DNA of 64,000 bases from an uncultured Candidatus Bathyarchaeia archaeon (GTDB taxonomy: Archaea; Thermoproteota; CALKCG01; B24). How positions within the stretch are numbered: position 1 is the first letter of the stretch; every line of letters starts with the position of its first letter. The stretch is from positions 4,236 through 68,235 of the forward strand of contig CAYWZZ010000006.1 of NCBI GenBank assembly GCA_964463005.1, given 5' to 3'. Below, in pieces: positions 20,878 to 63,381 of the stretch. A program made the position numbers and the translations under genes. Below the pieces are notes generated by a model that worked only from the letters and a program-made list of their open reading frames with translations, did not search any database and had not been told where the DNA came from.

Positions 20878-21964
20878 ATGATGATTGGTGAAAGCTTTTT
20901 CACACTTAGGACGATACTGTGGGAGGACGGAGCCATAGTTGCAGTAGATCAAAGGCTATTACCTAAAAGGTTCAAGTACGTTAAGATACGTAGTGTAGAC
21001 CAACTTTCTGAAGCCATTAAAAAACTCACCATAAGGGGGGCACCTGCCATAGGTGTTGCGGCAGCTCTTGGATTGGCATTGGTTGCATATAGATCTAAAG
21101 CGGAAAATCTAAGCGATTTTAAAAGGGAAGTTATGGATGCATACGAGAAGCTTAAATCTACTAGGCCTACAGCTGTAAACCTATTTTGGGCTCTTGACAG
21201 GGTTGTAGCGAAGATTTCTGAGGCAAAAGACCTTAAAGAGGCTAAGAAAATGATTATAGAAGAGGCTAAGACGATATGGATGGAGGATTATGAGGTAAAT
21301 AGACGCATAGGAGAGCATGGAGCTACACTACTTGAAAATGGGGATATGGTGCTCACGCACTGTAAATGGCTTAAGCCAGCAGAATGCGGGAGCACTAGCC
21401 ACTACTGGCTATGGAACCGCATTGGCAGTAATAAGGTCAGCTATAGCTAGGGGTTTACACATAGAAGTGTATGTAACTGAAACTAGACCAGTACTCCAAG
21501 GTGCTAGGTTAACGGCTTTCGAACTCCTTATGGATAGAATACCATTTAAACTCATAACAGATAATGCTGTCGGATTTCTGATGAGTAGGGGGCTTATAGA
21601 TAAGGTTGTAGTTGGCGCCGATAGAATAGCTTTAAACGGCGATGTTATAAATAAGATAGGGACTTACGGCTTGGCTGTTCTTGCAAGCCACCATGCGGTA
21701 CCATTCTACGTAGCAGCTCCAATGTCTACTATAGACCCTAATCTCAAATGCGGCGATAATGCCCCTATAGAGTTTAGAAGTGAAGAGGAAGTGGTTAAAA
21801 TTCACGGTCATAGGATAGCTCCTGAAGGCGTTGAAGCATTAAATCCAGCTTTTGACGTAACTCCTTCAAAGCTTGTAACGGCTATAATAACTGAGATGGG
21901 TGTGTTTAAGATACCGGAAGACTTAGATAGATTGAGGAGTATTAGGCTTGAGAAAAGCATTTAA
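20878..21964 (+). pseudogene. eIF-2B/MtnA family isomerase (methylthioribose-1-P isomerase or ribose-1,5-bisphosphate isomerase), with the reading frame broken at 21364-21382
   Basis: ORF 20878..21450 carries ...IRGAPAIGVAAALGLA...LTHC. ORF 21317..21964, in a different frame, carries [20 protein letters not shown]...[13 protein letters not shown]. The two halves are separated by 19 nt (aaatggcttaagccagcag) relative to the canonical THCNAGALAT. Confidence 0.6.
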
Positions 21965-21982: not shown

Positions 21983-22768
21983 TTGAGGTTTAAGGCTATG
22001 GACTTATCCATCTTAAGGCTACTATCGTCCTTCGCCATCCTAGCACCATCTACAATTCTAGATGTAAAGTTTAGAGAAGTTCCCGATGAGTTTTGGATTG
22101 TTGGATTGATTTTAGGATTAACTATAAACATTGTAGAGGTTTTAACTGGTCATCTTGAAATTTTGAAACTTCTGACATCTTTAGCTATAGGCTGTATAGT
22201 GGGCTTCTCACTATTCTACATCGGTTTTTTTGGAGGAGCTGATTCAAAGGCTTTAATTTTCCTCAGCTTCATATTGCCTGAAAATCCAACATTAATTAGA
22301 CAGCTCGGAGCATCCCTAAACATACCGGTGATTACGGTATTCAATAACGCCATTACGCTATCTCTATGCTACCCATTAGCTATAGCCATTCTAAACGTTA
22401 AAGAGTTTGTTGAAGGAAGAGATCCTCTGCGGGGTTTGCATATTAGAGGAGTGTTTCAGAGGATTGCGCTATTTTTAACTGTTAGACGCACGTCTTTCGA
22501 AGAGCTTAGAAGAAAGGTTGGATATTACCCCGCTGAGCAACCTCATGAAGAAAACGGAAGAGTTTTCAGACGCCCAATATACTTCATGAAGGCTGAAACA
22601 GATAAAGAAGAGTTACTTCGAAAATTGGAACCTTATGCTAGCAAAGGGCTCTATCAAGATGGAATTCTTGTTTCACCTACGATACCGTTTATAACGTTCA
22701 TAATGCTGGGTTTAGCCTTCCTTCCGATAGGAGACTTTATTTTAACTTTGGTTTCGCTCATCAAGTGA
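21983..22768 (+). CDS. A24-family prepilin/preflagellin peptidase (PibD/FlaK-like)
   Basis: LDVKFREVPDE carries the first catalytic Asp context. GFFGGADSKAL carries the second (GxGD/GGAD). Polytopic membrane protein. Confidence 0.65.
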   Translation: MRFKAMDLSILRLLSSFAILAPSTILDVKFREVPDEFWIVGLILGLTINIVEVLTGHLEILKLLTSLAIGCIVGFSLFYIGFFGGADSKALIFLSFILPENPTLIRQLGASLNIPVITVFNNAITLSLCYPLAIAILNVKEFVEGRDPLRGLHIRGVFQRIALFLTVRRTSFEELRRKVGYYPAEQPHEENGRVFRRPIYFMKAETDKEELLRKLEPYASKGLYQDGILVSPTIPFITFIMLGLAFLPIGDFILTLVSLIK

Positions 22769-23030: not shown

Positions 23031-24104
23031 TTAAGTCATAAAACCTATTCCTTTACATTCTATTTCGCTTGGTTTACCTAAGCCTCCGTTGATTTTAAAA
23101 TCAGCCTTCAGAATCATTCTGCTAAGCTCTATACAGGTGAGGGCGTGCATTGTAAGCTCTACGGTTTTAAATCTGCTTACTCCATCTGCTAGACTAGCCC
23201 ATATAATGAGCTGGTCGCAGAGGTGTTTATCTACAGGATAGCCGCCTCTAATTATGTTGATGAGCTCTTCAGCCGCCTCCGAGCCTATAAGCTCAGCCCG
23301 TTTACCTATGACACCCAATCGATCTACACCTAGATATCCGTAAGTGTGTTTAACCGTTATGATTAATCCGCAACCCGGGTCTAAGCTACACTTGGGGTTT
23401 AGAGGATGGAGGATTTCTTTCTCAAAAATCGGCTTTAAACCAATTGCATTAAGTTTTTCTGAAGCGCTTAAAGCCATTCTATTGGCTATATGATCTGGAA
23501 GTCTACAACTATATGCTAATCCTCTAACTTCCGATATCTCACCTAACTTATCAAGAGTTATAGGTTCAAGCTTTCTAATAGGCTCTGTTGAGAATTCCAC
23601 TTCTCCACCACCTCTAGGATAGAATCCCCTCCTGTTCAGCTTCAGATTGGCTTTAACTCCTATGAGTCTAAGATTCGGCAATAAAACACTGTCGATGTAG
23701 TCTACTGGAGGGGCCATGGGGTTGTTCGTACCTCCTATGAGCGTAAGCTTTGTGTAACCTGGTGTAAAGGCCATGACTGGCATGGCGGCTTGAAGGATTA
23801 AAGTTACGCTTCCAGCCGTTCCTACGTCGAACTTATAAGACCCAGGTTTAAGCTTTCCAGGGTTAAAAGTAACCTCCGTAGAGCCTAATTGTAAACCTTC
23901 AACGTAACCGTTGCATAGGGAGGATAGGACTTTTAAAGCCGTCATATGTTGCCTCGCTAAACCAGGCGGTTTGCGTTTACCTCTAACATTTACTACTCTA
24001 ACAGGTTCACCCAGTAAGGCTGACAAAGCCATAGACATTCTGAGTATCTGACCGCCACCTTCAAGCATATCTCCCGGTATAGTTATCATAGTACTCAACT
24101 CCAT
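23031..24104 (-). CDS. rtcA: RNA 3'-terminal phosphate cyclase
   Basis: GDMLEGGGQILRMSMALSALLGEPVRVVNVRGKRKPPGL is an RtcA N-terminal signature; 357 aa. Confidence 0.85.
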   Translation of the reverse strand: MELSTMITIPGDMLEGGGQILRMSMALSALLGEPVRVVNVRGKRKPPGLARQHMTALKVLSSLCNGYVEGLQLGSTEVTFNPGKLKPGSYKFDVGTAGSVTLILQAAMPVMAFTPGYTKLTLIGGTNNPMAPPVDYIDSVLLPNLRLIGVKANLKLNRRGFYPRGGGEVEFSTEPIRKLEPITLDKLGEISEVRGLAYSCRLPDHIANRMALSASEKLNAIGLKPIFEKEILHPLNPKCSLDPGCGLIITVKHTYGYLGVDRLGVIGKRAELIGSEAAEELINIIRGGYPVDKHLCDQLIIWASLADGVSRFKTVELTMHALTCIELSRMILKADFKINGGLGKPSEIECKGIGFMT

Positions 24105-39394: not shown

Positions 39395-41161
39395 CTACAC
39401 CCCCCTAGACCCGAGTATTTGGGATTCGTAAATCTTAGCGTATAATCCGTTTTTAGCTATCAGTTCATCGTGAGTGCCGTCTTCAACTACGCGTCCATCA
39501 TCAAGGACCACTATTCTATCAGCAAGTTTTAAAGTAGATAAACGCTGAGTTACTATGAAAACGGTCTTATCTTTTATGAGCTCTTTTAAAGCTTCACATA
39601 TCTCTTTCTCCGTTTCAGAGTCCACACTCGATGTGGAATCGTCAAGTATTAGAATCTTTGGGTTTAAGATTAAAGCTCTAGCGATAGCTAATCTCTGCCT
39701 TTGACCACCTGATAACGTTACACCACGCTCCCCTATTATGGTGTCGTATTTTTCAGGCAGACTCATTATAAAGTCATGGATACGTGCAATTTTAGCCGCT
39801 TTCTCAATCTCCTCGTATGTAGCATCGGGTTTACCGTATGCTATGTTCTCCCGTATGCTTATTGGAAATAGGAAAATATCTTGGTGTACAACACCTATCT
39901 GTCTACGTAGAGAATCTATTTTAACGTCTCTTATATCGTAACCGTCTATCAGAATACGGCCTTTCTGGGGATCGTAAAACCTAGGTATAAGCTTTATCAA
40001 AGTGCTTTTACCAGAGCCTGTAACCCCTACCAGAGCAACCTTCTCACCAGGTCGGACTTCCAAGTTTATACCTTTAAGTACTGGCTTATTAGGGTCATAA
40101 CCGAAAACGACGTTTTCAAAGACTACATGCCCTTTAATATTTGGAAGCTCTATAGCGTTGGGCTTTTCTTTAACCTCAGGCTCAGCATCCAGTGCTTCAA
40201 AAACCCTTCCAGCGGATACACTTGTCCTTTGATAGTCTGCATATAGGAAGCCGAAGGACATTATAGGCCAGACGAGGTAACCTAAGTACATGGAGAAGGC
40301 TATTAGATCTCCTATCGTTATCTCATTGTTGAAAAACCGCAACCCTCCGTATAGGTATACGATCGCAGACGCTACACCAATAACGAGGTTTAGAAATGGC
40401 CATGTCCGAGCGGCGAGCTTTTCAGAACGCATACTAAGGTCGTAAACCTGCTTATTTATGGATTGGAATTTTGTAAAAGCCCAATTTTCAATTCCAAGTG
40501 CTTTGATTACTCGGAAGCCGGAAACGGATTCTGCAACCACGGTGTTTAATCTACTCTGTTCGACCCATCTACGGTCGAATATGGGTTTTACGAATTTTGC
40601 GAAAACCATGGATATTACCACTATGAAGGGTACTGTAATGGATATTGATATTAAGGCCATTGAAACATTTATTGAAATAAGTATCGCGGAAATTAGTAGA
40701 ATCATCAGAATAGAGCTTAACAATTGCGTTACACTAGAGCTTATGAAGTTACCGATCGTATCTATGTCGCTTGTGATACGGTTTATTATCTGTCCAACGT
40801 CAACTTTATCGAAGAAGCTATAGGATAGATCTTGTAAATGCCTGTAAAGCTGTAACCTCATATTATGGCTGATCTTCTGAGACATTAGACCCGATATGTA
40901 GTCTCTTAGGAAGAAGATAGCACCATGTAGGACTGTTAAACCCAGTATTGCTGCAGCATAAAGCCATATGTTTGAGACGAACCCTATGAAGATGTTATTT
41001 ACAATACCTCTACTGATCCAGGGTAGGAGGAGGTCTACCACAACCCCCACTACTACGAGCGTCATCGAGATCGTAAAGAGAAGTTTATGTGCTATGAGAT
41101 ACTTGAAAAGCCTAGGTAGAATTCTTTTAGCAGATTTACCCCCATAAGCCATATATATCAC
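39395..41161 (-). CDS. ABC exporter, fused permease-ATPase, subunit 1
   Basis: Walker A GVTGSGKST, signature LSGGQRQR and Walker B ILILDDSTS. Lies 4 nt from subunit 2. Confidence 0.85.
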   Translation of the reverse strand: MIYMAYGGKSAKRILPRLFKYLIAHKLLFTISMTLVVVGVVVDLLLPWISRGIVNNIFIGFVSNIWLYAAAILGLTVLHGAIFFLRDYISGLMSQKISHNMRLQLYRHLQDLSYSFFDKVDVGQIINRITSDIDTIGNFISSSVTQLLSSILMILLISAILISINVSMALISISITVPFIVVISMVFAKFVKPIFDRRWVEQSRLNTVVAESVSGFRVIKALGIENWAFTKFQSINKQVYDLSMRSEKLAARTWPFLNLVIGVASAIVYLYGGLRFFNNEITIGDLIAFSMYLGYLVWPIMSFGFLYADYQRTSVSAGRVFEALDAEPEVKEKPNAIELPNIKGHVVFENVVFGYDPNKPVLKGINLEVRPGEKVALVGVTGSGKSTLIKLIPRFYDPQKGRILIDGYDIRDVKIDSLRRQIGVVHQDIFLFPISIRENIAYGKPDATYEEIEKAAKIARIHDFIMSLPEKYDTIIGERGVTLSGGQRQRLAIARALILNPKILILDDSTSSVDSETEKEICEALKELIKDKTVFIVTQRLSTLKLADRIVVLDDGRVVEDGTHDELIAKNGLYAKIYESQILGSRGV

Positions 41162-41733
41162 CTCGAGATTATGGAGAGAAGCTCATCCATAAGCCTACGG
41201 TATTTTTCACTTCTGTAGAGCTCTATATGGGTTAAAATATCCATTAGTAGGAAGGATGTCGGAGGTTTTAAAGCAGAGGGATTTACATCCTTACTGGCTA
41301 AGTTCTCTAAAACCATTCTTTTAGAAGCATTAAATTCTTCAATCAGCTTAGTAAGCTTAGTCATATCCGATACCTTATAGCCAAAGCTTTCTATGAGCGA
41401 TGCAACCTCTCCACAGAGCTTTTCATTCCAATCCTTAACCGAAGACTCGGCTTTCTCACTTAAACTGTAACTTACGATATAATGTCTAGCTGAAGCTCTA
41501 TAGAACCGCTCTATTATATTACCCCGTCTACGTTCGTAGGCAAGCTCAATTAAACCAGCAGCCCTCAGGACCTTTAGATGATGGTCGATAGAGGAGGCTG
41601 GCTTATCCAATATTTTAGCAAGTTGATTTATAGACATTTCTCTGATTTTTAAGAGGTTCAATATTTGACGTCTAGTTTCATCAGCTAAGAGCTTAGCGAC
41701 TTCAGCGTCTTTGATCACCATAATCTCTTTCAA
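41158..41733 (-). CDS. ArsR/SmtB-family winged-helix transcriptional regulator with a C-terminal extension
   Basis: LADETRRQILNLL....SINQLAKILDKPASSIDHHLKVLRAAGLI. Its stop overlaps the start of the ABC gene. Confidence 0.65.
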   Translation of the reverse strand: MKEIMVIKDAEVAKLLADETRRQILNLLKIREMSINQLAKILDKPASSIDHHLKVLRAAGLIELAYERRRGNIIERFYRASARHYIVSYSLSEKAESSVKDWNEKLCGEVASLIESFGYKVSDMTKLTKLIEEFNASKRMVLENLASKDVNPSALKPPTSFLLMDILTHIELYRSEKYRRLMDELLSIISR

Positions 41734-42341: not shown

Positions 42342-42893
42342 TTACTTATCTAGTTGCGATTCGCTAAAACCTTGGGAAAGCTTATAGTAAACTACTTCTC
42401 CTCTACGATCTACAACAGCCAATAGAAGCTCTTTATCCGAATACACATCAGGTCTGGTAACTCTGATTAAATCTTCTATTTTAACTGGTTTACCTTCCGA
42501 AACCCCTATGACCAAATATTTAGCAGGTTGCTCACCATATGTTCCACGTTCATACATTAGAAAATCCAACCCAATCCCATAACCTCTTCTGACCACATAC
42601 CCCCTATCTCTTAAATCTCTATATATTAAAAATCTAATCCAAACGTCTGGATCAGTAGGGATGAGTCTTTCGGTAACGTCCTTCAATGTAAGCTCACGAT
42701 CAGCTTCAAAAATTCTAAGTTTACCCTCACTCATCAAATAAAGGGCCTCTTCGCCAGCTAAAATGAGAAAATTGCCTTCTTTAACGCCATATCCTTTCTG
42801 AATTAGAAAACTCCTATAATCGCTGTCTTTAACTAAAATTCTACCATTCTCTAAGAAGGCTATACCGCTTGGAGGTTTAGACTCTGAATCCAT
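42342..42893 (-). CDS. endA: tRNA-splicing endonuclease
   Basis: LIYRDLRDRGYVVRRGYGIGLDFLMY is the catalytic C-terminal domain (Y..LR.RG..V..G.K.G.DF..Y). Confidence 0.8.
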   Translation of the reverse strand: MDSESKPPSGIAFLENGRILVKDSDYRSFLIQKGYGVKEGNFLILAGEEALYLMSEGKLRIFEADRELTLKDVTERLIPTDPDVWIRFLIYRDLRDRGYVVRRGYGIGLDFLMYERGTYGEQPAKYLVIGVSEGKPVKIEDLIRVTRPDVYSDKELLLAVVDRRGEVVYYKLSQGFSESQLDK

Positions 42894-43036: not shown

Positions 43037-45007
43037 TCATCTAAGTCTTATGCTCTCAAGGTTTCTTGGAGCAATAGCTGGGAGCTTGAAGATGTGTGAT
43101 ATTGCTGAGGATAAGTTTTGCGTTTTCTGCGCTTCACCATGACACACGATGACCATTTTAGGCCTAGGTGATAGTCTTTTAACGTAGGAGAGAAGCTGAC
43201 GTCTATCGGAGTGCCCGCTGAAACCTTCAATAGACTTAACATTCATCTGGACTTTAATAATATCTGCTTTACCATCCTTAGACATCAGAGGAACTTCTTT
43301 TAAACCATTTTTAATTCTACGACCTAAAGTACCTTCGATTTGATAACTGACGAATATGAGGGTGTTTCTTGGATCTTCAGACATAAGTCTAAAGTATTCA
43401 AGCACAGGCCCACCTTCCATCATACCAGATGGAGCCAGAATTATGGATGGCTCACTTTCAGCTATTTCAAACCTCTGATTTGGATTTGAAATAGGAGTGA
43501 AGCGCTCAGACTGAAATACGTTCACGTCTTCACGTAGAATAAGATCTCTAAGCTCTTGGGATAGATATTCAGGGTAGGCTGTGTGAATAGCTGTGGCTTC
43601 ATTCAACATACCATCTATGTATATTGGAACTTCTTTAAGCAAACCCTTCCTCATATAAGAGTCTAAGACTATCATTATTTCCTGGCCTCTGCCTATGGCT
43701 GGGGTAGGTATTAGAACCTTTCCACCATTCTCAATTGTCTCATTTACCGTAGAGATGAGCGATTTTTCCACTTCCTGTCTAGGAGGCATAACATCTTCTT
43801 CACCGCCGTATGTAGATTCCATTACTAAAGCTTCAACTCTTGGAAAGTTTGTCGAGGACGCATCTAGGAGCATTGTTTTACCGTTTTTGAAGTCTCCTGT
43901 TATTACAATGTTATAGTGGCCCTCACCTATATGTAGGTGGGCTATTGAAGAGCCGAGTATGTGTCCAGCATTCCATAGGGTGAGCTTAATATCTGGAGCT
44001 ATATCTACTACATAGCCATATCTGAGCGTTACAGTATGTAGAATCATTTCTCTAACGTCTCTCTGACTATATGGAGGAATTACGCCCTCCTTAGCAGCAA
44101 CGTCTAAATAATCGAGTTGAACAAGAACCATGAGACTTAAAGTGGGTTCAGAACAGTAGACTGGACCTTTATACCCATATTTATATAATAGCGGGATGGC
44201 GCCGCAGTGGTCTAAGTGGCTATGCGTTACAACTACGGCGTCGAGAGAATCGAAGTCTAAACAGTCAAAGTCTAAATATGGAAACATCTGATTCGGCTTA
44301 GATGCACCCGGATTTATACCACAATCTACCAATATAGAGCTTTCTTTAGTTTTAACTAATATTGCAGATCTACCGACTTCTCTAAATCCTCCGAGAGGTA
44401 TCAGTAGAACCTCATCTACAGGAAAAATTAAGGGTCTGAATATCCGCTCACCATCCTCTCTTAAAGCCCTCTCCCTCTCCTTTGTATCAGTGTAGAGTAC
44501 ATGTCTAATGTTGGCGATTATCTTTGAAGGTGTCGACGGCGTTCTAAGAACTCTAGGTATCCATTTCGTCTTTCTTAAGATTTCTTGTAGGAGAGAGCCA
44601 TCCTTACCTATGGCTAAACCAGTCTTCTTGGCCTCTATTATAACCTCGCCTAGTACATCGTCGAAAATGATGTTTTCTACGCCTGCTTCTTCGGGAATCA
44701 CTTGACTTATGACTGCTTTAACCTCTTCTTTAGGTGCTCTAACAGATGGGTCGGATCTAACTACAATCCGCCTCTTCATAGTTTCAACGATGTCGGAAAT
44801 TATGTAGCTTTTATCTACTAGTAGAACCTCAGGCTTCTTAACGTAGATTGCGAGCTTGGAACCTTCAAAGTTTATCCTAGTTACTGCAACATCCTCCGGA
44901 ATTTTAGATAGAACTATTTCCCTTATTTTAGATAACGGGTCTTGAAACTGCTTTTTCACAATTAAACACCTAAATTTTCCATCGTCTATTAAATTGCAAC
45001 TAAACAC
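43037..45007 (-). CDS. aCPSF1/FttA: KH-domain beta-CASP MBL ribonuclease
   Basis: N-terminal KH repeats. VVTHSHLDHCG MBL motif. Beta-CASP region. 656 aa. Confidence 0.85.
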   Translation of the reverse strand: MFSCNLIDDGKFRCLIVKKQFQDPLSKIREIVLSKIPEDVAVTRINFEGSKLAIYVKKPEVLLVDKSYIISDIVETMKRRIVVRSDPSVRAPKEEVKAVISQVIPEEAGVENIIFDDVLGEVIIEAKKTGLAIGKDGSLLQEILRKTKWIPRVLRTPSTPSKIIANIRHVLYTDTKERERALREDGERIFRPLIFPVDEVLLIPLGGFREVGRSAILVKTKESSILVDCGINPGASKPNQMFPYLDFDCLDFDSLDAVVVTHSHLDHCGAIPLLYKYGYKGPVYCSEPTLSLMVLVQLDYLDVAAKEGVIPPYSQRDVREMILHTVTLRYGYVVDIAPDIKLTLWNAGHILGSSIAHLHIGEGHYNIVITGDFKNGKTMLLDASSTNFPRVEALVMESTYGGEEDVMPPRQEVEKSLISTVNETIENGGKVLIPTPAIGRGQEIMIVLDSYMRKGLLKEVPIYIDGMLNEATAIHTAYPEYLSQELRDLILREDVNVFQSERFTPISNPNQRFEIAESEPSIILAPSGMMEGGPVLEYFRLMSEDPRNTLIFVSYQIEGTLGRRIKNGLKEVPLMSKDGKADIIKVQMNVKSIEGFSGHSDRRQLLSYVKRLSPRPKMVIVCHGEAQKTQNLSSAISHIFKLPAIAPRNLESIRLR

Positions 45008-45632
45008 TGGCCATAAGTTTAGCTTTATCGTCTTCAGAGAGTTCTTTAAAGCCTTTAGAGTCCACTATGATAATATCTATATTATCCCCGGTGGCAATAT
45101 CTCTACGCATAGCAGCTTTAAGAGATTTAACTACTAGAGGAAGTGCTTCTTCAACCGTCAAACCATCTTTAATATTCGTCTCAAGCTCACCCATAGCTAT
45201 TGGAGAGCCCGATCCAGTTGCAAAGTACTTCTCCTCCGTAACACCTCCAAATGGGTCTAAAGCATATATGTGTGGGCCAGTTTCATCCACTCCTCCAACT
45301 ATCGCCTGAACGGAAAGGGGCATGAACCTATTACTATAGAGTATCTGTGAAGCTAATCTTGATGCAGTACTTACGGGCATAGGTCTATTGCGTTCAACCT
45401 TATACAATTTAGCGTAGAACCTAAGCATGTCCACAACGTTCTGGCCTTCAGCTACAGTTCCAGCTATAGTCATGGCTAAATGGTCGTCTATTTGATATAT
45501 TTTACGGCCTCTCTTATGGGCTACTGTGAACCCCATCGTAACCCTCGTATCCGAAGCTAAGACAACCCCATCTTTGCAAACTAAACCTATGGTTGTCGTA
45601 CCAGTTTTCAATACTTTGAAACCATCATACAA
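45000..45632 (-). CDS. psmB: proteasome beta subunit
   Basis: GTTTIGLVCKDGVVLASDTRVTMG, with the catalytic Thr exposed after the propeptide. Overlaps the aCPSF1 start by 8 nt. Confidence 0.9.
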   Translation of the reverse strand: MYDGFKVLKTGTTTIGLVCKDGVVLASDTRVTMGFTVAHKRGRKIYQIDDHLAMTIAGTVAEGQNVVDMLRFYAKLYKVERNRPMPVSTASRLASQILYSNRFMPLSVQAIVGGVDETGPHIYALDPFGGVTEEKYFATGSGSPIAMGELETNIKDGLTVEEALPLVVKSLKAAMRRDIATGDNIDIIIVDSKGFKELSEDDKAKLMASV

Positions 45633-55985: not shown

Positions 55986-57524
55986 TTACATGCTTTCAGC
56001 CGTGGATAGTTCGGCTAGTATTTTGAAGCATTCCCTGTAGTGTTCATACACCTTTTGGTATGCTTTAATTAGTTTAGCGTATTCACTATGAGCCTTTGGA
56101 TTTGGATTATAGGTTTTAGATATTCTAACCATTTTAGCTACCGCTGTTTTGAAGTCCGCGTATACTTTTACGCCTACACTGGCGAGTATACAGGACCCTA
56201 GAGCTGCAGCATCGAGCACTTCAGGAACGTGTAGACTCATACCTAGAACGTCGGTCTTTATCTGATTCCATAGGTTGCTCTTAGCTTCACCACCAGTCAT
56301 GGTAATTCTTCTAACATCTACTCCAAGTCCTCTAACAAGCTGTAGGGTTTCAGAATATTGAAAAGCAACACCTTCGAGTATTGCTCTTATAAAGTCAGAT
56401 TTTCTATGGGCGTGTGTAAACCCTATGAACGCTGACCTAGCTAAGGGGTCAAATTTAGGAGCTCTAGCACCCCATAGGTATGGATAGTAGAAGAGGCCTC
56501 CGGCTCCTGGAGACACATTTGCTGCAATTCTATCGAAAAGCACGTAAGGCGATATGTTCTCCTCCCTAGCCTTATATGCCTCCTCATAGCCGAAGTTATC
56601 TCTAAACCACCTTAAAGATTCACCTGTAGCATTTATTATTACTTCATACTCCCACGTACTCGGTACAACGTGGCAACAACAGTCAATCAAGCCTTTAGGG
56701 TCAGGCTTAGCCTTGGATAAGGGGACTTCAAAAACAGTTCCAGTACCGGTACCTATATTTACATCGCCTTCCACATACACACCTACACCTAACGCCTCAC
56801 AGGGGCGGTCTCCACCGCCAGAGACGATCGGGACTCCTAGCGGTAGGCCTGTCTGCTCGGAAGCGCTACTGCCGACTTCACCTACCACCTCCCAAGACCC
56901 CTTAACCTCTGGAAGTATATCCATGGGTATTTCTAAGGATTCGCATATTTCGTCAGACCATTTAAGTTTATGGATATCGAATAACATCGTACGCGAAGCC
57001 ATACTGCGATCAGTTGTCTTAGTCCCACATAGCTTAAACGCTATGTAGTCTTTAGCGAATAGAATGACGTTTATTTTTTGAAATACATTTGACAAATTTT
57101 CCTTAAGCCATAGAAGCTTCGCGGCTGAGAAAATATGATCGACTGGAACGCCGGCTATTTTTAGAACTCTCTCCGGGGAGATCAGCTTTTCAATCTCATC
57201 TTTTTGCGGGATAGCCCTCATATCTAGCCATATTATGCTATTGTAAAGTTTTTCTCCAGTTTTATCTATTGGGACAAACGCTTCTCTTTGAGAAGTTAAG
57301 CCGATGCCGATTATATTCTCAGACGGTATTTTAGAAGTGATCTTTTTCAAAGCAAGTTTAGTCGCCTTCCACCATTCTTCAGGGTCTTGTTCAGCCCAGT
57401 TCATTTGAGGATGGTAGACTCGATACTCTTCAAACGCTTCTGCGACTATACGACCGTTAACGTCGAATGCTACCGTTTTACAGCCGCCAGTACCAATATC
57501 CAATCCAATTATGATTTGGCTCAT
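55986..57524 (-). CDS. FGGY-family carbohydrate kinase (xylulokinase/ribulokinase/glycerol-kinase-like)
   Basis: MSQIIIGLDIGTGGCKTV at the N-terminus and the two-domain FGGY layout; 512 aa. Confidence 0.85.
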   Translation of the reverse strand: MSQIIIGLDIGTGGCKTVAFDVNGRIVAEAFEEYRVYHPQMNWAEQDPEEWWKATKLALKKITSKIPSENIIGIGLTSQREAFVPIDKTGEKLYNSIIWLDMRAIPQKDEIEKLISPERVLKIAGVPVDHIFSAAKLLWLKENLSNVFQKINVILFAKDYIAFKLCGTKTTDRSMASRTMLFDIHKLKWSDEICESLEIPMDILPEVKGSWEVVGEVGSSASEQTGLPLGVPIVSGGGDRPCEALGVGVYVEGDVNIGTGTGTVFEVPLSKAKPDPKGLIDCCCHVVPSTWEYEVIINATGESLRWFRDNFGYEEAYKAREENISPYVLFDRIAANVSPGAGGLFYYPYLWGARAPKFDPLARSAFIGFTHAHRKSDFIRAILEGVAFQYSETLQLVRGLGVDVRRITMTGGEAKSNLWNQIKTDVLGMSLHVPEVLDAAALGSCILASVGVKVYADFKTAVAKMVRISKTYNPNPKAHSEYAKLIKAYQKVYEHYRECFKILAELSTAESM

Positions 57525-57590: not shown

Positions 57591-59615
57591 CTAGTCTTTA
57601 AAGTAGAGTATTTCAACATCATGTGGGTTAAGCGTAAGCTTTACGGTTTTACCTTCTACATGAAAATCTCTGAGGAGACTTTTGACATCTAAGACGCCGC
57701 CGAAGTCTAATTCTACTGTTTTACTCCTCGGATCATGGTTTATCAGGAACAGTACTCTGTAATCACGGCCTTTCTTAGACACTAGTTCAACTGGTTCACC
57801 TCTAAGTCCAACGGGAGGTTTAACAAACCCTCTTTCAACGATTTTACCAGCTATAAGTTCAGACGCATCTTGAGTTAGAAAGCAACCAATGTATACAGCG
57901 TAACCCTTACCATAACGGTTGACTGTTAGACCGGGCTTTCCTTTAAACCACTCATAATCATGAACCCCTAAGACTTGGGCGGACGTTACAGTCAACTCTT
58001 CCAGCCAACTTGAGGCAGATATCAACCCATACTGAGTGGATATCTTAGCCTCTCTTCCAGGTGGAATTGAGGTATAATCTGTCACCCGTAGACCGAATAA
58101 ATCTTTAAGTTCACCTGGAAGACCGTTTGAATATACCTGGTTGAACTCGTCCTTAACTGAGGTCCTAGCCGTCGCTATGAGTAAGCCTCCGCCCTCTACG
58201 TAGCTTTTAAGCTTTTCAATAAGACTTTTACTCGTTAAGTATAGGAATGGAGCTAACAATACTCGGTATTTTGTAAATTCTCCATCTGGAGGTACTACAT
58301 CTACATTTACGCCTTGACTCCAGAAGCCCTTATATGCGTTTAGCACCTGTTCATGATAGCTTGTAGTGTAATACTTATCTTCGATTAATGTAGCCCAGAG
58401 AGAATCATATGAAAATATAAGCCCAACTTCACTCTCATATTTAGCATCGACTAAGACTTCGCCGATTTTCCTCAGCTCTTCACCAACTTTCTTCACCTCC
58501 AGATATCTACGATTCACTTCACCATCGTGGTTTAAAATGCCGTGCCAATACTGCTCTTTGCCAAAGCATACCGTTCGATATCTAAAGTAAACGACGCCTT
58601 CAGCTCCATGGGCAATCGACTGATAGAGCCATTTCCTCAGTTCACCTGGATCAGGCGTCACACCTATCGGATTTCCAGCATAACCATCAGTTGGCCCAGC
58701 CTGAAGCTCCATGACCCAAAAGTTTCCCGCACCCATGCATCTAGTAGCGTCGTGAAGTAGGGATATCCAGGCGGGGTCGTAATGTGGTCTAGCAAACTTT
58801 GGATAGCAATCCCACGATGGGAAGTCTAAGTTTTTACTGAGATCGTAGTAGTCTATGCCTGGGAAAAGCCCCATGAGGTTTGTCGTCACCCTCTTATCAG
58901 GGCTTATAGACTTCAGTATATGCACCTGTATTTTGAGGAAATTCACAAAAGACTCTGACCTAAACTTAAACCAGTCTAAGCTTAGTCCCCGGTTACATTC
59001 ATCGAATGGTGGATTGGGGGGATGTATTTCATCCCAATCACTATACTCATGGCTCCAAAATATTGTTCCATAGGCTTTATTGAGTTCGTTTATAGATCCA
59101 TACTTGTCTCTAAGCCAATTTCTGAAAAGTGTAATGCAGTGTTCACAGTAACAGTATTCGTTGCCAAGAGACAGTTCATTATCTATCTGATACCCTATGA
59201 CGTTTGGATTATCCCTGTAGTGTTCAGCCATGGCTTTTACGATTCTTTCAGAAGCTTTAATGTAGTTTGGATTATTTGGACAGTAGTGTCTTCTAGCGAC
59301 AGGGGGCATCCTATAGCCTTTAAAGCTCACTGGCAAAATATCTGGGTGGTTTTTTACAAGCCAAGGCGGAGGAGTTGCTGTTGGAGTACCCAATATCGCT
59401 TTAACGCCTTTAGTTGATAAAAGTTCTATAACATCGTCAAGCCACTGGAAGTTGAACTTACCTGGTGAAGGTTCAAGTCTACACCATGCAAATTCTGCAA
59501 GCCTAACAACATTGAATCCAGCTCCACTGATGAGGCTGGCGTCTAAAACTCTTCTTTCAACAGGCCAGTGTTCAGGGTAATAGTCTACGCCGAACCATAG
59601 TTTAACATCGCTCAT
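57591..59615 (-). CDS. GH42 beta-galactosidase
   Basis: WFGVDYYPEHWP N-terminus. NEYCYCEHC zinc-site cluster. Trimerisation domain. 674 aa. Confidence 0.85.
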   Translation of the reverse strand: MSDVKLWFGVDYYPEHWPVERRVLDASLISGAGFNVVRLAEFAWCRLEPSPGKFNFQWLDDVIELLSTKGVKAILGTPTATPPPWLVKNHPDILPVSFKGYRMPPVARRHYCPNNPNYIKASERIVKAMAEHYRDNPNVIGYQIDNELSLGNEYCYCEHCITLFRNWLRDKYGSINELNKAYGTIFWSHEYSDWDEIHPPNPPFDECNRGLSLDWFKFRSESFVNFLKIQVHILKSISPDKRVTTNLMGLFPGIDYYDLSKNLDFPSWDCYPKFARPHYDPAWISLLHDATRCMGAGNFWVMELQAGPTDGYAGNPIGVTPDPGELRKWLYQSIAHGAEGVVYFRYRTVCFGKEQYWHGILNHDGEVNRRYLEVKKVGEELRKIGEVLVDAKYESEVGLIFSYDSLWATLIEDKYYTTSYHEQVLNAYKGFWSQGVNVDVVPPDGEFTKYRVLLAPFLYLTSKSLIEKLKSYVEGGGLLIATARTSVKDEFNQVYSNGLPGELKDLFGLRVTDYTSIPPGREAKISTQYGLISASSWLEELTVTSAQVLGVHDYEWFKGKPGLTVNRYGKGYAVYIGCFLTQDASELIAGKIVERGFVKPPVGLRGEPVELVSKKGRDYRVLFLINHDPRSKTVELDFGGVLDVKSLLRDFHVEGKTVKLTLNPHDVEILYFKD

Positions 59616-59648: not shown

Positions 59649-61010
59649 TTATTCTTCTGAGAGGAATTTCGTACCCCAATGTTCTAATGCCTTTCGCAAC
59701 TCAACGTGGTCTTTAGCATACTCTCCTAAGGGGATGTTATTCATAAATGCCTCCATAGCCTGTCGCATAGCCGTTGCGCCAGCTTTAGTCCCCATCGGAT
59801 GCCCATGGATGCCTCCCCCGGCATTCAGCTGAATATCTGGAAAGCCTAGCAGTTGTAGGTTTGCGGGAACTAAAGCTGGATGTATCCCACCGGAGGCTAC
59901 GGGTAATGTCGATTTAAGACCATACCAGTCACTTCTCAGAAAGTCGTTCATATAGCGAATTCCGGCAAGACCGGAAAAACTTTCAAGCTGCTTCAACGCT
60001 CCGCTACCGGGTTTCTCCATCTTACCCTTAGCAGTCCCCGTATGCAGTTGATCACCGCCAGCCAACCTAACGAGCTTAGCTAATACGAGCATGTGAATGC
60101 CGTGCTCGGGGTTTCTCGTCATAGCAGCATGTAGACATCTATGGACGTGAATTGGAACTTTAACAGATGGATCTTCGGCCAACTCCCTTAAAGCAGGGTA
60201 ACCCGTGCAGAGGACATCTATCATTATGCAGTTGGCACCATTACTGAGGGCTATCTCAACGTTCTTCCACAATCTATTCAAATCCGCTGTAACATCAACT
60301 GCATATAACACCGTTCTACCAGTTTCCTCCTTAACTTTATCGAGCACACTCATCACGTGAGAAACTCTTTCTTCCAACTGGTTGAACTTTTGACTTGTAA
60401 GCGTTTCATCGTCCTTTATGAAGTCAACACCACCTATGGCAGCTTCATATGCCACTTTAGCCGTCTCCGCGGGGTTGAGGCCTACTTTAGGTTTGATTAT
60501 CGTACCTAAGTGAGGCCTTGGATTTCCATGAGTGCCTATTATTCTCCTCACACCCTCTATGCCGAATTTCGGTCCTTTAAACATCTTAACGTATTCTTTA
60601 GGTAGGCTTACGTCTAGCAATCTCACATTTTTTAGAGCACCTATTCCAAACAAGTTGCCAGCTATGATTGAAAGCATATGCGAAATGCCAGCTTCTAAAT
60701 CAAATAAATCTAAAGGAAATGCCACTTTTGCCAATCCTCCACCATTTAACTTCTCAACTTGAAAGACTTTACCTGCTAACTTCAATACCCTATCAGTTAT
60801 CGTTACAACTTTTGTCCACGTTCCTATAGATTGTTCAGCAACAAGGTTTATCGCAGCACTTTGAAGGCTGAGATTTTCCCTTGGGGTTATGTAATAGAGA
60901 CATATAACGTGACTATCGGGGTCTATTTCCTCAACACTGGCTGTGAAGGTTTTTATCCAAAATTCCTCCTCAAACCACTCCTTACTCATGCCCATGAAGG
61001 CAACGCCCAC
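59649..61010 (-). CDS. rbcL: RuBisCO large subunit homologue with a complete catalytic residue set (form III-like)
   Basis: AEQSIGTWT (E60/T65/W66), AGNLFG (N123), IIKPKVGL (K175/K177), GGVDFIKDDE (K201/D203/E204), HVHRCLH (H294/R295/H298), GGDQLHTGT (H327), ASGGIH (S379) and NAGGGIHGHP (G403/G404). Confidence 0.8.
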   Translation of the reverse strand: MGVAFMGMSKEWFEEEFWIKTFTASVEEIDPDSHVICLYYITPRENLSLQSAAINLVAEQSIGTWTKVVTITDRVLKLAGKVFQVEKLNGGGLAKVAFPLDLFDLEAGISHMLSIIAGNLFGIGALKNVRLLDVSLPKEYVKMFKGPKFGIEGVRRIIGTHGNPRPHLGTIIKPKVGLNPAETAKVAYEAAIGGVDFIKDDETLTSQKFNQLEERVSHVMSVLDKVKEETGRTVLYAVDVTADLNRLWKNVEIALSNGANCIMIDVLCTGYPALRELAEDPSVKVPIHVHRCLHAAMTRNPEHGIHMLVLAKLVRLAGGDQLHTGTAKGKMEKPGSGALKQLESFSGLAGIRYMNDFLRSDWYGLKSTLPVASGGIHPALVPANLQLLGFPDIQLNAGGGIHGHPMGTKAGATAMRQAMEAFMNNIPLGEYAKDHVELRKALEHWGTKFLSEE

Positions 61011-61152: not shown

Positions 61153-62601
61153 ATGAGGTACTTCCTAGGTTTGGATGTAGGTACTAAGAATATTAAAGCA
61201 ACCGTGTTAAGCGATGAAGGAAACATCGAAGAAGAGGTTTCGATTTCAGTTTACGACTTGATAAATCAGCCTAGAGCTGGGTTTGTAGAGCGCGATCCAC
61301 TGGCGCTCTGGAAGAGGGTATGCGATAGTTTAAAGAGGCTTAAACTTAAAGATAAAATTGAAGGTGTTTGCGTTGACGCTACGAGCGGCACGATTGTGCC
61401 AGTAGATGAGGCGGGCATCCCTCTGCACAACCTTATAATGTACAATGATAGTAGAGCTGTAACAGAGGCGGAGGAGCTTAGAAAGTCTAGCTCTAAAGCA
61501 CGTGAATTTGAAAGTTTCCTTCCAATAACACCTCAGCTAGTTCTACCTAAAATAATGTGGATGAAAGAACATTGTGAATTCTACGGAAGGATCTATAAAA
61601 TACTCCATGAAAGCGACTACATAGTCTATAAATTAACTGGATTATTCGCATCTTCTACTAACACTGCCGGAAAATCTCACGCGCTTTTAGACCGTTTAAA
61701 GTACCTTGAAGAGGCATATGAAGATGTAAATGTACCAGTTGACTTTATGCCCGAGTTAAAGCCCATAGGCTCAATAGTAGGTTACGTGACGGAGAATGCA
61801 AGCGTGGAAACTGGCTTACCGAGTGGAATACCTGTGATAAATGGGGTTACAGATGCAAGCGCCGGAGATATAACTTCAGGAGCCATAAAAGCTGGACAAG
61901 CAAATGCAACGATAGGTACAGCTTTGACAGTTCACGTAGTCGTTGATAAACCCGTACCAGACGCATTTCAACGATTCTACTACAAAACATACGTTAACGA
62001 TTTGTTCCTAGCAGGAGGATTTACAAACGCAGGGACAACTGCTTTAGACACTATGAGTAGACTTTTAGGTAAAAATCTCATGGAGCTCACGGATATGGCT
62101 AGGAAGGTTCCACCGGGTTGCGAGGGTCTAATTGCATGTACAGAATGGTATGGCGTAAGAGTGCCGAAGACATATCCTAGTGTCAGAGGATTTTTCATCG
62201 GGCTTTCAGAAATCACGGCAAATCCGGGTGTTATCTTTAGAAGTATGTTGGAGGGGTCTGCTTTAGCGCTTAAACTTATGCTGGATTCTGTAGAGGAGGT
62301 GACGAAGATTAAAGTGTACGATCTTAGGGTGAGTGGGGGTGCTTCTAGAAATGACCTATTTATGAGTATCATAGCTGACGTTTCAGGTAAAGACGTTTAC
62401 GCAGTTGAAGAGCCAAATTCCGCCGTTGGTTCAGCTATATTGGCTATGTGGGGCTGTACAGGGGGAGAAATAGAGAAGATAGTGAGTAAAGTGGTTAAGA
62501 TAAGGGAGCGGTTTAAGCCTAATATGGAAAACCATGTAAAATATTCGAATCTACTGGATAAGTATGTTAAATTGGTTGAAAACCTAGCTAAGATAGTATA
62601 G
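61153..62601 (+). CDS. FGGY-family carbohydrate kinase, second copy
   Basis: MRYFLGLDVGTKNIKATV at the N-terminus; 482 aa. Divergent from the rbcL operon. Confidence 0.8.
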   Translation: MRYFLGLDVGTKNIKATVLSDEGNIEEEVSISVYDLINQPRAGFVERDPLALWKRVCDSLKRLKLKDKIEGVCVDATSGTIVPVDEAGIPLHNLIMYNDSRAVTEAEELRKSSSKAREFESFLPITPQLVLPKIMWMKEHCEFYGRIYKILHESDYIVYKLTGLFASSTNTAGKSHALLDRLKYLEEAYEDVNVPVDFMPELKPIGSIVGYVTENASVETGLPSGIPVINGVTDASAGDITSGAIKAGQANATIGTALTVHVVVDKPVPDAFQRFYYKTYVNDLFLAGGFTNAGTTALDTMSRLLGKNLMELTDMARKVPPGCEGLIACTEWYGVRVPKTYPSVRGFFIGLSEITANPGVIFRSMLEGSALALKLMLDSVEEVTKIKVYDLRVSGGASRNDLFMSIIADVSGKDVYAVEEPNSAVGSAILAMWGCTGGEIEKIVSKVVKIRERFKPNMENHVKYSNLLDKYVKLVENLAKIV

Positions 62602-62694: not shown

Positions 62695-63381
62695 ATGGTG
62701 TCAACTTTGAAGTTTAAAGCAATAGTGCTTGATATGGATGGTACTCTTGTAGACTCTTCGGAGGCACATTTGAAAGCATGGTCTAAGGCTGCTGAGAAGC
62801 TGGGCGTTTATGTTCCAGAAAGCAAGATAAAGTCTGAGTTCGGTAAGTCGAGTTACGATATGGCTAAGGCTTTCCTACCACCTGATAGAGTTGAAGATGC
62901 TATTCGATTTGCTGAGCTTAAAGATAGGATATTCATGGAGGATTGTTTAAGCCTAATTAAGCCGATCGTAGGGGTAGCAGAGGCTCTTAAAGGATTTAAA
63001 GAAGTAGGTCTAGATATCGCCGTAGCTTCTTCAAACCCACGGAGGCTTGTAGTTAAAGTTTTAAATCTAACCAACCTGCTAGGCTACGTGGATGTTGTAA
63101 TCGGTTCCGAAGACGTTAGGAGGGGGAAGCCGCATCCAGATATGGTTGAAGAAGCCATTAAAAGACTGAATGTGAAGCCATGTGAAGCCATATACGTGGG
63201 CGATACGGTGTACGATGTAAAAGCAGGCAAAGCAGCTGGCGTATTCACAGTCGCCGTTTTAACAGGAGTAGCATCTAGAGAAGAGCTTGAGAATTCGCAA
63301 CCTGATATGATAGTGGAAAACATAAAAGATCTGTTAAAGAGCTTAACGGGTGGGCGCTATCCATTCGTAGAGAAAACATAA
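62695..63381 (+). CDS. HAD-superfamily hydrolase, subfamily IA (phosphatase/beta-phosphoglucomutase-like)
   Basis: IVLDMDGTLVDS is motif I. Also SSNPRR and VGDTVYDVKAGKAAG. Confidence 0.8.
   Translation: MVSTLKFKAIVLDMDGTLVDSSEAHLKAWSKAAEKLGVYVPESKIKSEFGKSSYDMAKAFLPPDRVEDAIRFAELKDRIFMEDCLSLIKPIVGVAEALKGFKEVGLDIAVASSNPRRLVVKVLNLTNLLGYVDVVIGSEDVRRGKPHPDMVEEAIKRLNVKPCEAIYVGDTVYDVKAGKAAGVFTVAVLTGVASREELENSQPDMIVENIKDLLKSLTGGRYPFVEKT

Follow-up and report, generated by a model that had tools for sequence, protein, structure and literature searches.

The window analyzed in this study is a 64,000-nt stretch of DNA from an uncultured Candidatus Bathyarchaeia archaeon. Its forward strand carries two overlapping open reading frames (ORFs), located at 20878..21450 (190 amino acids) and 21317..21964 (215 amino acids), that correspond to the halves of a single e2b2-family gene. 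Where the halves meet, the DNA reads ...ACG CAC TGT (Thr-His-Cys), aaatggcttaagccagcag, and then AAT GCG GGA GCA CTA GCC ACT (Asn-Ala-Gly-Ala-Leu-Ala-Thr)... The frame of the N-terminal half continues beyond this point and reaches a stop 28 codons past Cys162. Deletion of 19 nt yields a 355-amino-acid protein with one Pfam IF-2B domain (PF01008, 325.9 bits), which aligns without gaps through LTHCNAGALAT with the solved MtnA 1t9k (E 5.5e-108). The initial annotation had read the two ORFs as the N- and C-terminal parts of a single e2b2/IF-2B-family isomerase, and the ungapped alignment of the joined product to MtnA bears this out. It had also described the THC/NAGALAT motif as interrupted by 19 nt directly after the catalytic Cys, which is correct; the 19-mer that it named is located at 21364-21382.

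The joined protein scores 439.6 bits with TIGR00512, the MtnA equivalog model (cutoff 279), with residues 12-338 aligned to positions 2-334 of the 335 in the profile, and 449.1 bits with the MtnA model NF004326 (cutoff 271). Its score with TIGR00511, the model for ribose-1,5-bisphosphate (R15P) isomerase, is 232.6 bits and thus below the cutoff of 314.1. When solved structures are compared, MtnA proteins give E values of 1e-108 to 1e-94, whereas R15P isomerases give values of 1e-50 to 1e-46. In addition, the active-site motifs formed when the 19 nt are removed, LTHCNAGALAT and a segment containing GADR, are identical to those of 1t9k. We take the Cys of THCNAG and the Asp of GADR to be the catalytic residues, as in B. 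subtilis MtnA. Judged by these matches, the protein is MtnA, the S-methyl-5-thioribose-1-phosphate isomerase, and not a ribose-1,5-bisphosphate isomerase.

The initial annotation had raised a metabolic link, in which the gene might encode an R15P isomerase that serves a pentose-bisphosphate route together with a RuBisCO encoded in the same window. A RuBisCO gene is indeed present at 59649-61010 on the reverse strand. In a profile scan it is closest to form III, with scores that fall under both curated cutoffs (TIGR03326, 442 versus 497; NF003252, 432 versus 438). It lies 38 kb from mtnA, and its neighbors encode FGGY sugar kinases, a GH42 beta-galactosidase and a HAD hydrolase; no AMP phosphorylase was seen within the window. 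Because the protein is assigned to MtnA, passing the MtnA cutoff, failing TIGR00511 and lying closer to MtnA structures, the proposed link to this route is unsupported. By tblastn, mtnA is the sole e2b2-family gene of the 64 kb, and none of the ∼45 window ORFs scanned is a methionine-salvage gene of the mtnK/P/B/D type.

The genomes closest to the window are four independent Bathyarchaeia MAGs (L001-L004; 81-91% protein identity), whose match extends over 1084 nt, or 3 × 355 + 19. The 19 nt recur in all four, with one G-to-A substitution at the top of a hairpin described below. Inserts at the identical codon boundary are also found in the DNA of 12 distant lineages and in two metagenome loci, with lengths of 19, 21, 22, 25, 27, 28, 29, 32 and 39 nt. 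These homologous inserts of nine lengths come from JGI, ENA, NCBI and Logan contigs. They refute the earlier suggestion of an 18-nt insertion combined with a 1-nt error, given that four independent assemblies share the same 19 nt and that other lineages have inserts of 21 to 39 nt there.

MAG-type data may contain indels, and one 360-amino-acid protein (P0133) shows an extra 1-nt shift nearby, which could be taken as a sign that the real gene is uninterrupted and that the insert is an artefact of assembly or sequencing. Against this explanation, the insert is shared by the window, the four independent assemblies and metagenome contigs, and it occurs in nine lengths across four sources of data. 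Furthermore, neither an exact look-up nor a junction-spanning profile search revealed an uninterrupted, near-identical allele; the uninterrupted sequences from the profile search were at most 69% identical to any carrier lineage. An artefact of this kind is so improbable that we give it almost no weight. P0133 was also considered as a candidate for an intronless allele and was rejected. It is a read-through of the insert in the frame of the C-half after the extra 1-nt shift, and THC is missing from it.

The RNA that spans the junction is predicted to be highly structured. For positions 21340-21410, the minimum free energy (MFE) is −30.8 kcal/mol (z = −4.4), a value that none of 200 dinucleotide shuffles reaches. 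From 5′ to 3′, the MFE structure consists of the first strand of an outer helix, CUGU, an AAA bulge, the hairpin UGGC-UUAA-GCCA, GCAG, an AA bulge and the second strand of the outer helix. The whole motif (h-B-H-B-h′) occupies 21347..21397 on the forward strand, as supported by the MFE structure and by the pairing counts and outer-helix enrichment given below. Its outer helix joins exon to exon, pairing 21347-21354 with 21390-21397 and 21356-21359 with 21385-21388. The 5′ strand of this helix is formed by UGGUGCUC, a single unpaired A and CGCA, and the 3′ strand by UGCG, a single unpaired G and GAGCACUA. The central helix (H) comprises four base pairs between CUGU (21360-21363) and GCAG (21379-21382). 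The 5′ bulge AAA is located at 21364-21366, the intron hairpin at 21367-21378, and the 3′ bulge AA(U) at 21383-21384(5), all on the forward strand. As modeled, this fold is the helix-bulge-helix-bulge-helix (BHB) motif that is recognized by the archaeal splicing endonuclease.

All of the inserts from distant lineages fold into the same architecture as that of the window. Among 17 distinct junction sequences, the 5′ bulge is invariably 3 nt long (AAA or AAU), whereas the 3′ bulge is AA, AG or AU followed by a U that pairs with an A in 16 of the 17, leaving a 2-nt bulge in the MFE folds. Because this third nucleotide of the 3′ bulge is paired, the predicted motif is a relaxed form of BHB and not a strictly canonical one. 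The hairpins (h′) range from 3 to 12 bp and have wholly different sequences in different lineages, and the outer helix (h) ranges from 3 to 11 bp.

Covariation was examined in an alignment of the 17 distinct junctions, in which hairpins were trimmed to their outer 4 bp and four loop bases so that the alignment is free of gaps. The central helix is paired in 68 of 68 cells in the 17 sequences, including changes from U·G to C-G and from U-A to U·G. All four of the hairpin pairs tested change on both sides, as is evident from arms such as UGGC/GCCA, UGGUU/AACCA, CAGCUC/GAGCUG, UGACUUUC/GAAAGUUA and UAACCUCC/GGGGGUUA. Over the whole motif, 91% of cells are paired, versus 27-45% when the partners are slid by one to three columns, and only 0-1 of 500 column shuffles match the observed pairing values. 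When no structure is supplied, RNAalifold still predicts the covarying hairpin and the 3-nt bulge, together with three of the four pairs in the central helix.

The same RNAalifold analysis of the 47-nt core draws the exon flanks as short local hairpins (GUGC....GCAC) rather than as a long outer helix, and the case for the outer helix is therefore built on single-sequence folds and on an enrichment test. In that test, carriers of the insert form on average 8.6 of 10 outer-helix pairs, compared with 6.1 of 10 in 58 intronless genes for the same VLTHC-NAGAL peptide (Mann-Whitney p ∼9e-8). On the evidence of this comparison, synonymous positions serve to hold the outer helix.

Evidence that the gene is functional and that the insert is maintained comes from substitution patterns. 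Between the window and its four relatives, at dS values of 0.25-0.99, the N-half has a dN/dS of 0.10-0.20 and the C-half, in the spliced frame, one of 0.06-0.14. The insert differs at 0-1 of its 19 nt among the five genomes, compared with 16-38% of third-codon positions. Because dN/dS is low in both halves and the insert is nearly invariant, these comparisons indicate that the mtnA gene is functional and that the intron sequence is constrained. The gene had been described earlier as broken, and a pseudogene in which a frameshifting insertion has inactivated the isomerase would explain both the interruption of the genomic frame and the stop that follows Cys162 in the N-half. However, it would leave unexplained why the C-half has a dN/dS of 0.06-0.14 in the spliced frame at dS values of up to 0.9, why an insert occupies the same site in lineages that are only ∼50% identical, and why this insert is constrained and covaries as an RNA structure. 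We consider inactivation of the gene highly unlikely. What had seemed to be damage is better described as a conserved, structured insert with the character of a BHB-type intron, which many lineages share at this position. Both halves of mtnA, as measured here, experience purifying selection when the spliced frame is used.

The exact ends of the insert cannot be read from the window, where deletion of 21364-21382, 21365-21383 or 21366-21384 gives an identical product. Two relatives (L167 and L168) are informative on this point. The triplet that precedes GCU-GGA is AGU (Ser) in L167 (...GCAG AG↓U GCU, with the arrow marking the predicted cut) and AUU (Ile) in L168 (...GCAG AU↓U GCU), whereas Asn is invariant at the position of residue 163 across the family. 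The codon AAU is restored in both relatives only if each bulge is cut after its second nucleotide. The predicted splice points are fixed by coding because the Asn codon of L167 and L168 is rebuilt in one register only, in which exon 1 ends two bases past the Cys codon and exon 2 begins with base 3 of the 3′ bulge. Judged from these two relatives, the meaningful register in the window is 21366-21384.

With this register, exon 1 of mtnA is predicted to occupy 20878..21365 on the forward strand and to comprise codons 1-162, the last of which spell ...VLTHC, together with the AA that opens the Asn163 codon, as supported by the ORFs, the alignment and dN/dS. The putative BHB-type intron, which is 19 nt long (AUGGCUUAAGCCAGCAGAA) and in phase 2 within the Asn163 codon, lies at 21366..21384 on the same strand, an assignment based on the fold, the register of L167 and L168, and covariation. 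It begins with the third nucleotide of the 5′ bulge, continues through the hairpin h′ (UGGC-UUAA-GCCA) and GCAG, which is the 3′ strand of the central helix, and ends with AA, nucleotides 1 and 2 of the 3′ bulge. Exon 2 (21385..21964, forward strand; alignment and dN/dS) would supply the U that is the third base of the Asn163 codon, followed by codons 164-355 (AGALAT...) and the stop. The two predicted cleavage points are symmetric, each lying 2 nt 3′ of the central helix. When the rule of cutting between the second and third nucleotides is applied in silico to the 17 sequences, every one gives an in-frame THC-N-AGALAT and an uninterrupted protein of 340-358 amino acids. None of these 17 exact predicted spliced proteins occurs in a collection of 15 billion proteins, and the junction-spanning profile search likewise yielded no direct sign of splicing. 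Both results count against the splicing model, but they are weak negatives given that the collection derives mostly from DNA assemblies.

The same coding details bear on whether the two halves might be used without joining the RNA. Gene callers report two ORFs in every carrier, and split enzymes occur in archaea. The halves could in principle be translated separately and assemble into an active enzyme, with the insert acting as a spacer. In that case, however, the break would fall between two adjacent residues of the catalytic motif, Cys162 and Asn163. The C-half also lacks a conserved start codon at the junction, and in L167 and L168 its frame places Ser or Ile at the invariant Asn. A true split gene would leave the BHB geometry, the covariation, and an Asn codon that arises only on splicing without explanation, and we regard it as very unlikely.

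Another possibility is translational recoding, in which the ribosome shifts frame or hops over the insert as it does in phage T4 gene 60. The hairpin is positioned directly after the Cys codon, and in several lineages a stop occurs within the first few codons of the insert. A hairpin and an early stop codon resemble bypass signals. However, matching take-off and landing codons are absent. The inserts of 19-39 nt cover all three frames, and the five that are in frame (21, 21, 27, 27 and 39 nt) all contain stop codons, which excludes simple read-through and makes frameshifting or ribosome hopping very improbable. A plain frameshift would place 6-13 foreign residues in the catalytic loop. Moreover, the Asn codon of L167 and L168 is assembled from bases on either side of the insert, and no hop from the Cys codon to the next codon could yield it. 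Recoding is therefore as hard to credit as inactivation of the gene.

We consider it very probable that the 19 nt at 21366-21384 are a BHB intron in the coding sequence of mtnA that is removed by the splicing endonuclease. Both the cleavage and ligation of the mtnA pre-mRNA and the enzymes involved are what we infer from sequence. In the pre-mRNA, the codons for VLTH would pair with those for AGAL to form the outer helix, while CUGU, which comprises the end of the His codon and the Cys codon, would pair with GCAG of the intron to give the 4-bp central helix. The opposite side of the motif would be closed by the hairpin within the intron. The archaeal splicing endonuclease would then cut each strand 2 nt 3′ of the central helix (UGUAA↓A ... 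GCAGAA↓U), excising 21366-21384, or exactly 19 nt. An RNA ligase, which is RtcB in known systems, would join the exons to give the junction ...CACUGUAA↓UGCGGG..., where AA and U together form the codon for Asn163 and THC-NAGALAT is in frame.

The inserts are distributed widely and unevenly. When the N-half was used as a protein query, dozens of clusters ∼50% identical to it were found to end just past THC, with tails of KWL, KQL, KWP or K-stop, and some of these THC-terminated clusters reside on contigs >200 kb. Among the best 120 protein clusters, 53 are split after THC and 66 are intact. Two of the split clusters (P0037 and P0046) carry the source name "Nitrososphaerales archaeon", and the four closest genomes (L001-L004) carry the name "Bathyarchaeia". 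In a metagenome scan, the intron was present in two of 80 loci among the matches listed, the rest being mainly intronless, bacterial-type genes, and this proportion is unusable as an estimate of frequency.

In a crude neighbor-joining tree built from N-halves, the split lineages fall into several large groups interleaved with intact clades, one of which includes sequences with the source names Nitrososphaera or Nitrosopumilaceae. Most introns start with U-G-G, end with C-C-A-GCAG, and have an AAA bulge, even among proteins that are only ∼50% identical. Because these sequences match between such distant proteins, they suggest common descent of the intron with later losses, a question that so weak a tree cannot settle. 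A search of the window for further copies of the intron sequence found no more than chance would give. A loose BHB pattern combined with an ORF-fusion filter likewise gave no convincing second case in the window, with 806-841 structural hits versus ∼770 in shuffled sequence and with the other apparent fusions bridging neighboring genes.

A pre-mRNA intron has been reported in the cbf5 gene of Crenarchaeota (Desulfurococcales and Sulfolobales; Watanabe 2002; Yoshinari 2006; Yokobori 2009, PMC2738675). The cbf5 and mtnA introns are alike in being short interruptions of an archaeal coding sequence that are framed by a (relaxed) BHB motif, and in belonging to TACK hosts with hetero-oligomeric endonucleases. 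Both have a patchy distribution that implies gain and loss, and both are mis-annotated by gene callers as a frameshift or a split gene. The cut rule is the same as well, since each bulge of a cbf5 intron is predicted to be cut after its second residue (PMC2738675). The two cases differ in that cbf5 encodes an RNA-modification enzyme and mtnA a metabolic enzyme, and in that the mtnA carriers are Bathyarchaeia and Nitrososphaerales-type archaea. Furthermore, cbf5 splicing has been confirmed by cDNA and by in vitro cleavage, whereas the case for mtnA splicing is made by sequence comparison only.

Non-canonical tRNA introns range from ∼11 nt upward. Those of Crenarchaeota and Thaumarchaeota (Marck and Grosjean 2003; PMC5829648) share with the mtnA intron the h-B-H-B-h′ element, a small size and a variable intron hairpin, and relaxed variants are processed by (αβ)2 or ε2 endonucleases (PMC5829648). 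In contrast to these, the mtnA substrate is an mRNA whose exon helices are made of codons, so that synonymous sites bear a structural constraint. The mRNA of HVO_1309 in Haloferax volcanii also contains a BHB-flanked intron, one that has been shown to be cleaved by the splicing endonuclease (PMC7714728). That intron differs from the one in mtnA in being 46 nt long and located in the 5′ UTR, where it leaves the reading frame uninterrupted, and in belonging to a euryarchaeon with an α2-type enzyme (PMC7714728). A more distant parallel is provided by the unconventional cytoplasmic splicing of HAC1/XBP1 (PMC13149111), where a short intron defined by stem-loops (26 nt in XBP1) is removed without a spliceosome by a protein endonuclease and a tRNA-type ligase, with ligation of the RtcB type in metazoa. 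There too, removal of the intron shifts the reading frame to give the active protein. The HAC1/XBP1 system is distinguished by the IRE1 kinase/RNase, twin 7-nt loops, and its eukaryotic and stress-regulated nature.

A 2023 review lists two archaeal genes with mRNA introns, in the coding sequence of cbf5 and in the 5′ UTR of HVO_1309, and considers it likely that more will emerge (PMC10485636). Our search of openly accessible full-text literature returned only these two; an mtnA intron, or any further BHB intron in an archaeal coding sequence, is not reported there. The mtnA family would be the second archaeal gene family, after cbf5, with a BHB intron in its coding sequence. The proposed mechanism is familiar; the host gene and the lineages are new. 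A second coding-sequence case, in a metabolic gene and in many uncultured TACK lineages, would mean that the phenomenon is neither specific to one gene nor restricted to Crenarchaeota. The natural variants, of which there are at least 17, form a series from which substrate rules of the endonuclease could be derived, and the apparent use of codon choice to keep an RNA helix is of evolutionary interest. There is also a practical consequence for metabolic reconstructions of Bathyarchaeia and related archaea. Gene callers split or drop mtnA, as reflected in the 53 half-proteins noted above, and such reconstructions will therefore mistakenly list MtnA as missing or as a pseudogene.

Cleavage of a relaxed motif would call for a suitable endonuclease, and the window offers a candidate trans-acting partner. 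An EndA-family (tRNA-intron endonuclease) gene is located at 42342..42893 on the reverse strand, as identified by PF01974 and PF02778 and by a TIGR00324 score of 75.2 (cutoff 59.6). The best match among solved structures is 1a79, the M. jannaschii endonuclease (E 4e-23). When aligned with the enzymes of M. jannaschii and M. kandleri, the protein retains Tyr and Lys of the catalytic triad, whose residues are taken from PMC5829648, but has Pro in place of the His. Because of this replacement, the protein is probably a structural, β-type subunit of an (αβ)2 endonuclease. Enzymes of this type have broad specificity, cut non-canonical motifs and are typical of TACK archaea (PMC5829648). The sole EndA-family gene in the 64 kb is this one, and neither a catalytic EndA subunit nor an RtcB ligase is encoded there. 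Rfam and ARAGORN found three tRNAs only in the window, all of them intron-less.

The window EndA protein is 70% identical to the product of an EndA-family gene that adjoins mtnA in another lineage (L170), and the catalytic His is likewise absent from nine EndA-family proteins encoded beside mtnA in other lineages. Since mtnA recurs near a His-less EndA-family gene and its intron is kept at the catalytic Cys-Asn junction, the splicing machinery might conceivably gate production of MtnA. The full scenario holds that the mtnA intron is ancient, spliced in vivo and shared by descent among Bathyarchaeia and Nitrososphaerales-type archaea, that it was lost in clades such as the ammonia oxidizers, and that the machinery could gate MtnA in this way. 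We put this scenario forward as speculation and consider it unlikely as a whole. If the intron were indeed ancient and spliced in vivo, no other coding-sequence intron known in Archaea would be as widely distributed. If MtnA were gated by the splicing machinery, this would represent a regulatory coupling that is undescribed in archaea.

Adjacency of endA and mtnA was considered as a trait specific to intron carriers and was rejected, since the same arrangement is seen at intronless archaeal loci (L085, L095, L098, L105 and L116). Closer to mtnA in the window, a gene for RtcA, an RNA 3′-phosphate cyclase, is located at 23031-24104, two genes downstream.

The tRNA-intron endonuclease family (EndA) is the candidate trans-acting partner for the proposed BHB-type intron, and a gene of this family directly adjoins mtnA in many archaeal lineages. 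The usual arrangement there is HisRS-endA and, after it on the other strand, mtnA-PRTase. Comparison of locus DNA from relatives placed an EndA-family gene upstream of mtnA, on the opposite strand, at loci L161/L162, L163, L167, L168, L169, L170, L171, L172, L083 and L088. Five intronless loci (L085, L095, L098, L105 and L116) also have endA adjoining mtnA. Because this neighborhood is present at loci with and without the intron, it is not intron-specific.

The window carries its EndA-family gene at 42342-42893 (minus strand). At locus L170, an HTH_5 gene and endA precede mtnA and an A24 peptidase gene on the opposite strand. The pairing of mtnA with the A24 peptidase gene (21983-22768) is retained in the window, but endA and its ArsR-type HTH neighbor (41158-41733, minus strand) are located 21 kb from mtnA, unlike in L170. 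This difference suggests that an ancestral endA-mtnA pair was split by rearrangement in the window lineage.

The catalytic Tyr and Lys are kept in all 10 EndA-family proteins compared (that of the window and those in L161-L172). The catalytic His position is occupied by Pro, Ala, Val or Ser in every one of the 10. The proteins constitute a conserved His-less EndA paralog, which may provide an (alpha-beta)2 enzyme with its structural subunit. The EndA-family gene in the window is directly adjoined by genes for an FttA/aCPSF1-type transcription-termination nuclease (43037-45007, minus strand; KH, beta-CASP and RMMBL domains) and a proteasome subunit (45000-45632, minus strand), and the three form a small RNA-processing gene cluster. 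Downstream of the intron-bearing mtnA, two genes away, is a gene for RtcA, the RNA 3'-terminal phosphate cyclase (23031-24104, minus strand; TIGR03399, 373.8 bits versus a cutoff of 250). A tie between this position and RNA end-processing or ligation is possible, although the placement may be a coincidence.

Exon 1 includes the self-complementary segment GUGC-UCAC-GCAC (21349-21360), which RNAalifold favors over the long exon-exon helix. This predicted local hairpin could act as a competing fold that modulates BHB formation. Two intron-carrier lineages have a changed codon before the catalytic Cys: the His of THC is replaced by Tyr in L169 (TAC), as it is in the MtnA proteins P0010, P0026 and P0115, and by Leu in L174/P0072 (CTC). 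In both lineages, the altered base falls on the exon strand, immediately 5' to the central helix. Another MtnA protein, P0133 (360 amino acids, reading ...[25 protein letters not shown]...), belongs to the 90% cluster of P0002, itself closely related to the window mtnA gene. Its gene has an extra 1-nt shift upstream, after which the C-half frame is continuous across the intron, and THC is missing. P0133 is probably an indel or gene-call artefact of one contig.

The initial annotation had linked the isomerase gene to a pentose-bisphosphate route via R15P isomerase and RuBisCO. The RuBisCO large-subunit homolog (59649-61010, minus strand) is nearest to form III and misses both curated cutoffs (442 < 497 for TIGR03326; 432 < 438 for NF003252). 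Among the surrounding window genes, neither AMP phosphorylase nor R15P isomerase adjoins this homolog; beside it are two FGGY sugar kinase genes (55986-57524 and 61153-62601), a GH42 beta-galactosidase gene (57591-59615) and a HAD hydrolase gene (62695-63381).
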